A DNA stretch of 64,000 nt from Alphaproteobacteria bacterium. Lineage in GTDB: Bacteria; Pseudomonadota; Alphaproteobacteria; MPNO01; UBA830. Below are positions 31,525-36,454 of the stretch, piece after piece; position 1 is the first letter of the stretch, and every line of letters begins with the position of its first letter. Position numbers and translations under genes: made by a program. The stretch is from the NCBI GenBank assembly GCA_038146925.1, contig JAYQSP010000011.1, positions 42,816 to 106,815 on the forward strand, written 5' to 3'. The notes beneath the pieces were generated by a model, which worked only from the letters and a program-made list of their open reading frames with translations, did no database searches and was not told the origin of the DNA.

Positions 31525-31600
31525 GGGGCCGTAGCTCAGCTGGGAGAGCGCTGCGTTCGCAATGCAGAGGTCGGGAGTTCGATCCTCCTCGGCTCCACCA
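31525..31600 (+). tRNA. tRNA-Ala (anticodon CGC).
   Basis: GGGGCCGTAGCTCAGCTGGGAGAGCGCTGCGTTCGCAATGCAGAGGTCGGGAGTTCGATCCTCCTCGGCTCCACCA. Has the G3:U70 pair. Anticodon loop TTCGCAA. T-arm GGTTCGATCC-like. Encoded CCA. Confidence 0.9.
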
Positions 31601-31641
31601 ACTCCTCTTGAAACGCCTGCAGGAGCGCCGGGACGGACAGG

Positions 31642-35650: not shown

Positions 35651-35680
35651 AAAAAAGGCGGCTCACCGAGCCGCCTTTCT
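35651..35680. terminator. Bidirectional rho-independent terminator.
   Basis: AAAAAAGGCGGCTCaccGAGCCGCCTTTCT: 8-bp GC stem flanked by an A-run and a T-run. Lies between convergent genes. Confidence 0.6.
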
Positions 35681-35700: not shown

Positions 35701-36153
35701 TCAGGACATGCCGTCCAGATCGCCGATGACCTGGCCGGGATGATCCGCCGGCGTCACCTCGTCATAGGCGGCGGCGACTGTTCCGTCCGGCCCGATCAGC
35801 ACGGATTTGCGCGGCGAGCGCGGGCTGTCCGGTTCCGAAACGCCGAAGGCGACGGAAACAGCGCCGTCCTCGTCGCTGAGGAGGTCGTAGGGGAAAGAGA
35901 ATTTGTCGCGAAACGCGCCATTGTCCGCCGGGCTGTCGTAGGAAACGCCGACGATGGATGCGTTGCGGTCTTCGAAGTCCTGGATTCGATCACGGAACCC
36001 GTTGCCTTCGATGGTTCAGCCGGGTGTGTCGGCTTTGGGATACCACCAGAGCAGGACGTAGCGACCGGCGAAGTCGTCTTTTTTCACCGTCTTACCGTCC
36101 TGGTTCGGGAGGCTGAAATCCGGCGCTTCCGCGCCGGAGGCAATTAAGGCCAT
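35701..36153 (-). CDS. bcp: Bcp/PrxQ-type peroxiredoxin with in-frame TGA (candidate selenocysteine) at the peroxidatic Cys position, codon 45 (TGA 36016-36018).
   Basis: Minus-strand translation: MALIASGAEAPDFSLPNQDGKTVKKDDFAGRYVLLWWYPKADTPG[TGA]TIEGNGFRDRIQDFEDRNASIVGVSYDSPADNGAFRDKFSFPYDLLSDEDGAVSVAFGV...IGPDGTVAAAYDEV...*. Matches E. coli Bcp ...YFYPKAMTPGCT...DNM... GGAG RBS 9 nt upstream of the ATG. No other stops in frame. Confidence 0.6.
35971..36011 (-). promoter_or_regulatory. Candidate bacterial SECIS-like hairpin immediately 3' of the in-frame UGA.
   Basis: mRNA UGA-ACCA-UCGAAGG-CAACG-GGUUC-CGUGAUC-GAAUC-CAGGA-CUUCGA. Outer stem UCGAAG/CUUCGA, inner stem GGUUC/GAAUC, apical loop CGUGAUC containing GU. 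Confidence 0.35.
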
Positions 36154-36225
36154 TCAGGTTGCTCCATTCGATGTATCGTACCGGAGAAGTATATCATCTG
36201 GTGACCGACTCCGACATAGCGGCAT

Positions 36226-36256
36226 AAAAAAACCCGGCGCGGGGCGCCGGGTTTTT
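36226..36256. terminator. Rho-independent terminator (bidirectional).
   Basis: AAAAAAACCCGGCGCggggCGCCGGGTTTTT. Downstream of the small zinc-ribbon gene. Confidence 0.7.
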
Positions 36257-36274: not shown

Positions 36275-36454
36275 TCAGACGAAATCGGGCTCGCTGCGTT
36301 TGCGGCAGCGCAGGCACAGGCGGTTGTGCCAGCCTTCGCTCGCGAATTTCTCGCCGCACGACATGCAGGGTCGCTCGGTGGGTACATCGCTCACCGCGCG
36401 ATGGTCCATCACCAGTTCTTCAGCTTCCAGCGAGCTTGTGTTCGATTCGCTCAT
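36275..36454 (-). CDS. Small zinc-ribbon protein (CxxC...CxxC), hypothetical.
   Basis: 59 aa: MSESNTSSLEAEELVMDHRAVSDVPTERPCMSCGEKFASEGWHNRLCLRCRKRSEPDFV. GGGAG RBS. Below the 60-aa track cutoff. Followed by a strong terminator. Confidence 0.45.
   Translation of the reverse strand: MSESNTSSLEAEELVMDHRAVSDVPTERPCMSCGEKFASEGWHNRLCLRCRKRSEPDFV

Follow-up and report, generated by a model that had tools for sequence, protein, structure and literature searches.

The window, by which we mean the whole 64,000-nucleotide stretch of DNA analyzed, carries a complete peroxiredoxin gene with an in-frame UGA at the codon for the peroxidatic residue. The encoded protein is very probably a Bcp/PrxQ-class peroxiredoxin with a thioredoxin fold and with selenocysteine (Sec; U46) in place of the peroxidatic cysteine (Table 1). 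The earlier note on this DNA had put the gene forward as a selenoprotein candidate, and this proposal is now supported by the corresponding codon of orthologues, by a SECIS-like hairpin, and by independent assemblies. The gene is another copy of the marine Prx TxxU clade, whose members were published as selenoproteins between 2005 and 2008, and is as such already catalogued.

Gene, protein family, and public annotation

Translation of the minus strand from ATG 36153-36151 gives a frame with a lone interruption, the TGA at 36018-36016, which stands in the context ...WWYPKADTPG-TGA-TIEGNGFRD... (at the DNA level, ...LLWWYPKADTPG-TGA-TIEGNGFRDRIQ...). The codon preceding this ATG is a stop, so that the start is unambiguous, and the MALI... 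N terminus is conserved among homologues. A full-length Bcp-family frame from this ATG, open past the TGA and preceded by a GGAG ribosome-binding site, had been described before and stands, but its measures had to be corrected: counting the TGA but not the stop, there are 150 sense codons (not 152), 104 of them past the TGA (not 107), and the site at 36165-36162 is separated from the ATG by 8 nt (not 9). When the high-GC part of the window was scanned for in-frame TGAs with a coding-like GC3 signal on both flanks, 36016-36018 was the sole site.

Table 1. Features of the peroxiredoxin locus (window coordinates)
Feature	Position	Strand	Remarks
Terminator-like hairpin, CCCGGCGC-ccc-GCGCCGGG then T7	36226..36251	-	Sequence reading; ends the upstream small ORF
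GGAG ribosome-binding site	36162..36165	-	Sequence reading; 8-nt spacer to ATG
Predicted Sec-type Bcp/PrxQ peroxiredoxin CDS, complete	35701..36153	-	150 residues including U46, then TGA stop 35701-35703
UGA codon 46, predicted to be read as selenocysteine	36016..36018	-	Peroxidatic position of P39-x-x-x-T43-x-x-U46
Bacterial SECIS-like stem-loop	35972..36011	-	Lower stem 36011-36006/35977-35972; upper stem 36000-35995/35987-35982
Apical loop CGUGAUC, 7 nt	35994-35988	-	Loop of the SECIS-like stem-loop
Terminator-like hairpin, AAAGGCGGCTC-ggt-GAGCCGCCTTT then TTT	35651..35678	-	23 nt past the stop; the terminator scan lists + strand 35654-35678

With Cys substituted at the TGA, the protein matched Pfam AhpC-TSA (PF00578) over residues 7-128 with 110.1 bits (cut-off 26; E = 8.9e-32). 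The top NCBIfam models were Bcp (NF006960, 103 bits) and PrxQ (NF053650, 92 bits), compared with 35 bits for AhpC and 27 bits for Tpx; since the scores stay under the equivalog cut-offs of Bcp (140) and PrxQ (260), the protein is assigned to a divergent clade and not to either equivalog. The top 15 PDB matches were all Bcp/PrxQ/DOT5 proteins (5enu, E = 8e-19; 2cx3; 5iph). Identity to E. coli bcp is 37.5%, and the annotated matches in a plasmid collection are likewise named "bcp"; no match above 60% identity and no annotated Sec form was present in that collection. The active-site motif reads P39-K-A-D-T43-P-G-U46. In the homologue alignment P39, T43, and R115 are invariant, and R115 aligns with the conserved Arg of 5enu. 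Cys-containing Bcp/PrxQ proteins (E. coli Bcp; Xanthomonas campestris, 5iph/3gkk; Aeropyrum pernix, 2cx3; Burkholderia, 5enu; PDB matches with E of 1e-16 to 8e-19) have the same fold, a length of ~150-160 aa, the PxxxTxxC pocket, and the conserved Arg, whereas the window protein has predicted Sec for the peroxidatic Cys and Asn for the resolving Cys at position +5.

Indeed, the resolving Cys that the earlier note had found missing from the EGNG segment is absent: position +5 is Asn51, and there is no CxxxxC. Cys occupies this position in 65 of 77 Cys forms but in none of 38 Sec forms, which carry Asn, Lys, or Gln instead. Furthermore, 27 of the 38 Sec forms have no Cys at all, and the remainder have one at scattered positions, so that none is conserved; this agrees with the 1-Sec type suggested before. 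1-Cys variants of Bcp exist, and therefore the missing +5 Cys rules out a 2-Cys mechanism but not membership in the Bcp/PrxQ subfamily. Nearest among the Cys forms that also lack the +5 Cys are P0064, P0090, and the Nitrospina-type loci L010-L019. They share TPGxT[IM]EG[KQN]GFRD without CxxxxC and are 41-58% identical to the window protein, but they have TGC or TGT at the peroxidatic codon, a Cys at +47 (LLCD versus LLSD in the Sec forms), and no hairpin (2-3 of 6 upper-stem pairs).

Standard annotation had been expected to miss the gene, and so it does: public gene calls reduce it to a stub of 45 aa or to a C-terminal piece of 83-103 aa, or else give the full length with a false "W". Among the matches listed in the protein database search were both full-length entries of ~150 aa (60-87% identical, "W" at the critical position) and 83-103-aa C-terminal fragments (75-91% identical) named "redoxin domain-containing protein." The false W (TPGWT) arises from code-4 gene calling on short contigs, and two such entries (P0003 and P0004) also run past the true stop into junk. 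Such false-Trp entries, many of them among the matches P0001-P0027, are a systematic error that affects homology-based annotation. With an in-frame stop and scores below the Bcp/PrxQ equivalog cut-offs, annotation pipelines still fragment the gene.

Conservation of the TGA and the downstream hairpin

All 57 close loci retrieved have the TGA, long-read contigs among them; they represent 38 distinct proteins and reach down to ~55% identity. Among species-representative GTDB genomes, the five closest all have it; they comprise two Rhodospirillaceae MAGs, one MAG each from Alphaproteobacteria and SAR324, and an unclassified MAG. The TGA likewise occurs in 42 of 42 close metagenome loci (61-100% identity) and in five further contigs, of which two, 1.33 Mb and 346 kb long, are "ptg" contigs of long-read style. 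Assemblies with the gene include GCA_004213075.1 (SHAZ01), the WLWZ01 Alphaproteobacteria MAG, ERZ19489113 (the 1.33-Mb contig s84.ptg000824l), and ERZ27313046 (contig k141_666391). Four independent ENA assemblies, 99.3-99.6% identical to the window (26.9-46.7 kb), have an identical TGA and downstream sequence. In 76 more distant genome loci (≤46% identity) the codon is TGC or TGT, and the TGA column aligns with a TGC/TGT column in 77 homologues, giving a Sec/Cys pair. The pattern used to search genome contigs, PKADTPG[WC]T, cannot match a TGA and is therefore biased to Cys forms; five TGA loci were found with a second pattern. The comparison with orthologues proposed in the earlier note thus sets close relatives, all with TGA, apart from more distant ones with TGC or TGT, and confirms that the TGA had been placed correctly, in coordinates and motif, at the position of the peroxidatic Cys. 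In a distant peroxiredoxin (~30% identity; L130 45-47, Ga0316628_100932265), a TGA also occurs at the peroxidatic position, in the motif PKAFTGG-TGA-T, and probably marks a Sec-Prx lineage of independent origin.

Identity to the window protein is equal on both sides of the TGA, with the N- and C-terminal halves tracking each other, and the median dN/dS is ~0.09 upstream and ~0.05 downstream. Both halves of the gene are thus under purifying selection, in line with the earlier view that this is not a decayed pseudogene.

The SECIS-like hairpin begins 4 nt past the UGA. With the U of UGA as nt 1, the lower stem is formed by nt 8-13 and 42-47 and the upper stem by nt 19-24 (GGGUUC) and 32-37 (GAAUCC). 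Published criteria for bSECIS elements are an apical loop of 3-9 nt, an upper stem of 4-16 bp, a distance of 16-37 nt from the UGA, an MFE of ≤ −7.5 kcal/mol, and a G within the first two loop positions that is followed by G or U (PMC13188914). The window hairpin lies within all of these limits, with a 7-nt loop, a 6-bp stem, G-U at loop positions 2-3, an apical loop 21 nt downstream of the UGA, and an MFE of −13.1 kcal/mol, and it is conserved; the bSECIS check suggested for this region was therefore positive. Rfam had no SECIS-type family for it, neither at gathering thresholds over the whole window nor at permissive E values over 35900-36100, and returned only a tRNA-Ala and a chance snoRNA match.

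Folded as a single sequence, the region is unremarkable for its GC content (z = +1.31; 188 of 200 shuffled sequences are at least as stable), and since the hairpin is no stabler than shuffles, thermodynamics alone does not discriminate and comparative tests are preferred. Across 33 distinct Sec sequences, 96% of the cells are paired overall, 100% in the upper helix and 92% in the lower helix. The upper stem varies at one position only (G-U to A-U), and the changes in the lower stem are C-G to U-A and G-C to G-U. Two-sided covariation is sparse (one pair, four cells), and the structural case therefore comes mainly from synonymous constraint and from specificity for the TGA forms. Codons +6 to +11 (G52 F53 R54 D55 R56 I57) are nearly fixed in the Sec forms (GGG 30/33, TTC 33/33, CGT 33/33, GAT 31/33, NGA 33/33, and ATC 33/33), whereas the Cys forms encode the G-F-R-D residues with mixed codons (Arg is CGC in 53, CGT in 10, CGG in 8, CGA in 3, and AGA in 2). 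The synonymous diversity of these six codons is 0.11, the minimum of the gene, compared to ~0.5 elsewhere, and the sole freely varying nucleotide in the upper hairpin, C or A at the first base of R56, is the last position of the loop. An upper stem with six of six pairs in the same register is found in all 33 Sec forms and in none of the 77 Cys forms. The SECIS is overprinted on the conserved GFRDRIQ segment.

Readings of the UGA and proposed catalysis

The UGA might be read as Trp, Cys, or Gly, by an altered genetic code or by hairpin-stimulated suppression independent of SelB. Many homologues are publicly translated with W at this position, and Sec machinery was not found nearby: tRNA-Sec, selA, selB, and selD were not detected in the 37.5 kb of high-GC DNA in the window or in any of the fetched flanks. 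A search for tRNA-Sec was negative in the window and 18 related loci. E. coli SelA, SelB, and SelD, used as tblastn queries on the window and all fetched loci, matched only an unrelated GTPase in a Cys-form locus. Pfam scans of 30 neighboring genes revealed housekeeping genes and no sel genes. However, TGA is the normal stop for 20 of the 31 genes in the window, the peroxiredoxin gene included, and the code-4 calls also pass genuine stops, as the junk C-terminal extensions of P0003 and P0004 illustrate. Trp or Gly at the peroxidatic position would abolish catalysis, yet the active-site residues are invariant, and the hairpin fits the SelB-type bSECIS model down to the G-U of its loop. A standard amino acid at codon 46 is therefore very improbable.

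Less probable still is termination at the UGA, which would leave a 45-residue N-terminal peptide, possibly a separate C-terminal domain, and the hairpin as a regulatory or attenuator element. Gene callers do report just such pieces, and some relatives have an ATG soon after the TGA (P0028 and P0097 begin MEGNGF). In the window, however, the first in-frame start past the TGA is a GTG 72 codons downstream, which leaves an ORF of 33 aa, and the codon coincides exactly with the catalytic Cys of homologues, for which a split point has no reason. Moreover, the thioredoxin fold would be cut just before helix alpha-2; we know of no precedent for an active peroxidase from a fold split there and lacking the catalytic residue. 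Finally, the idea that a nonsense mutation, or an error in sequencing or assembly, produced the TGA in a dead or misread Cys-Bcp, to which one in-frame stop in an otherwise intact gene would point if a single sequence were at hand, has practically no chance of being true, because the same TGA recurs in 57 loci and 38 distinct proteins across several phylum-level lineages, independent assemblies, and long-read contigs (which excludes the sequencing error that the earlier note had kept in view), because selection is strong on both halves, and because no close relative has TGC or TGT. Taken together, the conserved TGA, selection on both halves, the lack of a usable downstream start, and the use of TGA as an ordinary stop lead us to reject error, pseudogene, split gene, and an altered code such as 4 or 25.

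For Sec at codon 46, we infer the following course of decoding and catalysis. At UGA 36018-36016, the mRNA hairpin would recruit SelB-GTP-Sec-tRNA(Sec) to the ribosome, and selenocysteine would be inserted instead of termination, to yield the enzyme of 150 residues. By analogy to peroxiredoxin chemistry, T43 and R115 of the PxxxTxxU pocket would activate the selenolate, which would attack the hydroperoxide and become a selenenic acid. Since the Sec forms have no conserved Cys, the selenenic acid would most likely be resolved by an external thiol (thioredoxin, glutaredoxin, or glutathione) via a mixed selenenylsulfide, in a 1-Sec mechanism and not through the CxxxxC disulfide of typical Bcp.

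Genomic setting and place among known selenoproteins

The terminator-like hairpin upstream suggests that the peroxiredoxin gene is a transcription unit of its own, although the consensus terminator scan did not list this hairpin. The hairpin past the stop is common to the peroxiredoxin gene and the convergent gene for a ring-hydroxylase beta subunit. The order of the neighborhood is conserved: an HbpS-like gene, a 59-aa zinc-ribbon-like ORF, the peroxiredoxin, the convergent ring-hydroxylating dioxygenase, and a glutamine synthetase-like gene. The small ORF (36,275-36,454, minus strand; MSESNTS...PCMSCGEKF...LCLRCRKRSEPDFV), directly upstream of the peroxiredoxin gene, has a CxxC...CxxC pattern and its own terminator, and ORFs of 58-59 aa occupy the same place in L136/L137 and L143-L146. 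In a second lineage (L138-L140; Tara/ENA/Logan), the Sec-Prx gene has other neighbors: before it lie a molybdopterin oxidoreductase/4Fe-4S/NrfD cluster and genes for a glycosyltransferase, an aquaporin, and a ferredoxin-like protein, and after it lies a gene for a B12-binding radical SAM protein. Gene context is therefore not conserved across the Sec-Prx clade.

Other parts of the window deserve separate mention. Between 26,400 and 26,600, the GC content steps from ~37% to ~63% within 100 bp, and the high-GC DNA starts in the middle of rlmN, of which only the last ~50 codons are present (...ERERKIA*); in the syntenic MAG L001 the gene is complete, with 373 aa. The window looks like two unrelated sequences joined by contig concatenation or chimeric assembly and not like a genomic island. 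The low-GC part encodes, on the minus strand at 5,476-25,771, very long, Met-poor, adhesin-like tandem-repeat proteins, with one repeat cadherin-like (FTSEATFSAAENQTAIGTVTATDADGD) and another reading TAPVITVIGDNPATVELGSTYNDEGA, broken into several stop-to-stop ORFs of 539-866 codons. The breaks are probably frameshifts from repeat assembly, and the ORFs are underreported by the ORF lister because start codons are rare inside the repeats. A 565-aa ORF of this part had no exact match on record. At the tRNA-Ala (CGC) gene (31,525-31,601), three of four near-identical population contigs have an extra ~3 kb adjoining (L143-L145, 15,700-18,665) that encodes a Trans_reg_C/TPR regulator and a Cupin_7 protein and is absent from the window and from L146. 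The two alignment blocks share 17 bp (31,585-31,601), the kind of overlap expected of a direct repeat at the flanks, and the population may be segregating for a small indel associated with this tRNA.

In the Sargasso Sea survey, the Prx TxxU selenoprotein family (COG1225) ranked second in abundance, with 43 sequences (Zhang, Fomenko & Gladyshev 2005, PMC1088965), and was later represented by 253 sequences in 34 GOS samples (Zhang & Gladyshev 2008, PMC2398784) and by 91 genes in 78 sequenced bacteria (PMC5029168); it is also listed in a 2026 review (PMC13188914). Two entries under "#Peroxiredoxin" in the GOS Dataset S1 have U at the site of U46 and are closely similar to the window protein: JCVI_READ_560720 (121/128 identical residues, 94.5%) and JCVI_READ_1000727 (133/150, 88.7%). 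The window protein shares with this family (COG1225/PF00578) the domain, the TxxU motif with peroxidatic Sec, the marine metagenomic origin, and the bSECIS directly downstream. There is no difference in kind; the window adds a longer genomic context, in which the gene is monocistronic and is placed between the HbpS-like and small zinc-ribbon genes on one side and an operon for the ring-hydroxylating dioxygenase on the other. A precedent for the chemistry is PrxU of Eubacterium acidaminophilum, described as an experimentally characterized peroxiredoxin with peroxidatic Sec (Sohling et al. 2001, as cited in PMC13188914). However, PrxU (NF040737, profile length 233) belongs to a different Prx subfamily, for which the window protein scored 47.2 bits against a cut-off of 270, and comes from an anaerobic Firmicute and not from a marine alphaproteobacterium; the comparison with PrxU drawn earlier therefore holds as an analogy only and not as orthology.

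The locus is a clean and well-sampled Sec/Cys switch in which the resolving Cys was lost alongside, and it can be used to test selenoprotein predictors and to compare the enzymology of Sec and Cys, although it opens no new question. Stubs, fragments, and false-W entries each misrepresent an abundant marine antioxidant enzyme. The 19-nt upper hairpin is nearly identical in nucleotide sequence in Alphaproteobacteria, the unclassified MAG, and SAR324, with proteins down to ~55% identity, which could be due either to spread by horizontal transfer or to a SelB recognition code of unusual strictness. It is conceivable, but we think it rather unlikely, that the Sec clade is a cysteine-free, obligately 1-Sec lineage of Bcp whose gene and SECIS travel between phyla together as a cassette. 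If so, the loss of both candidate resolving Cys residues (+5 and +47) would call for an external reductant dedicated to this enzyme.
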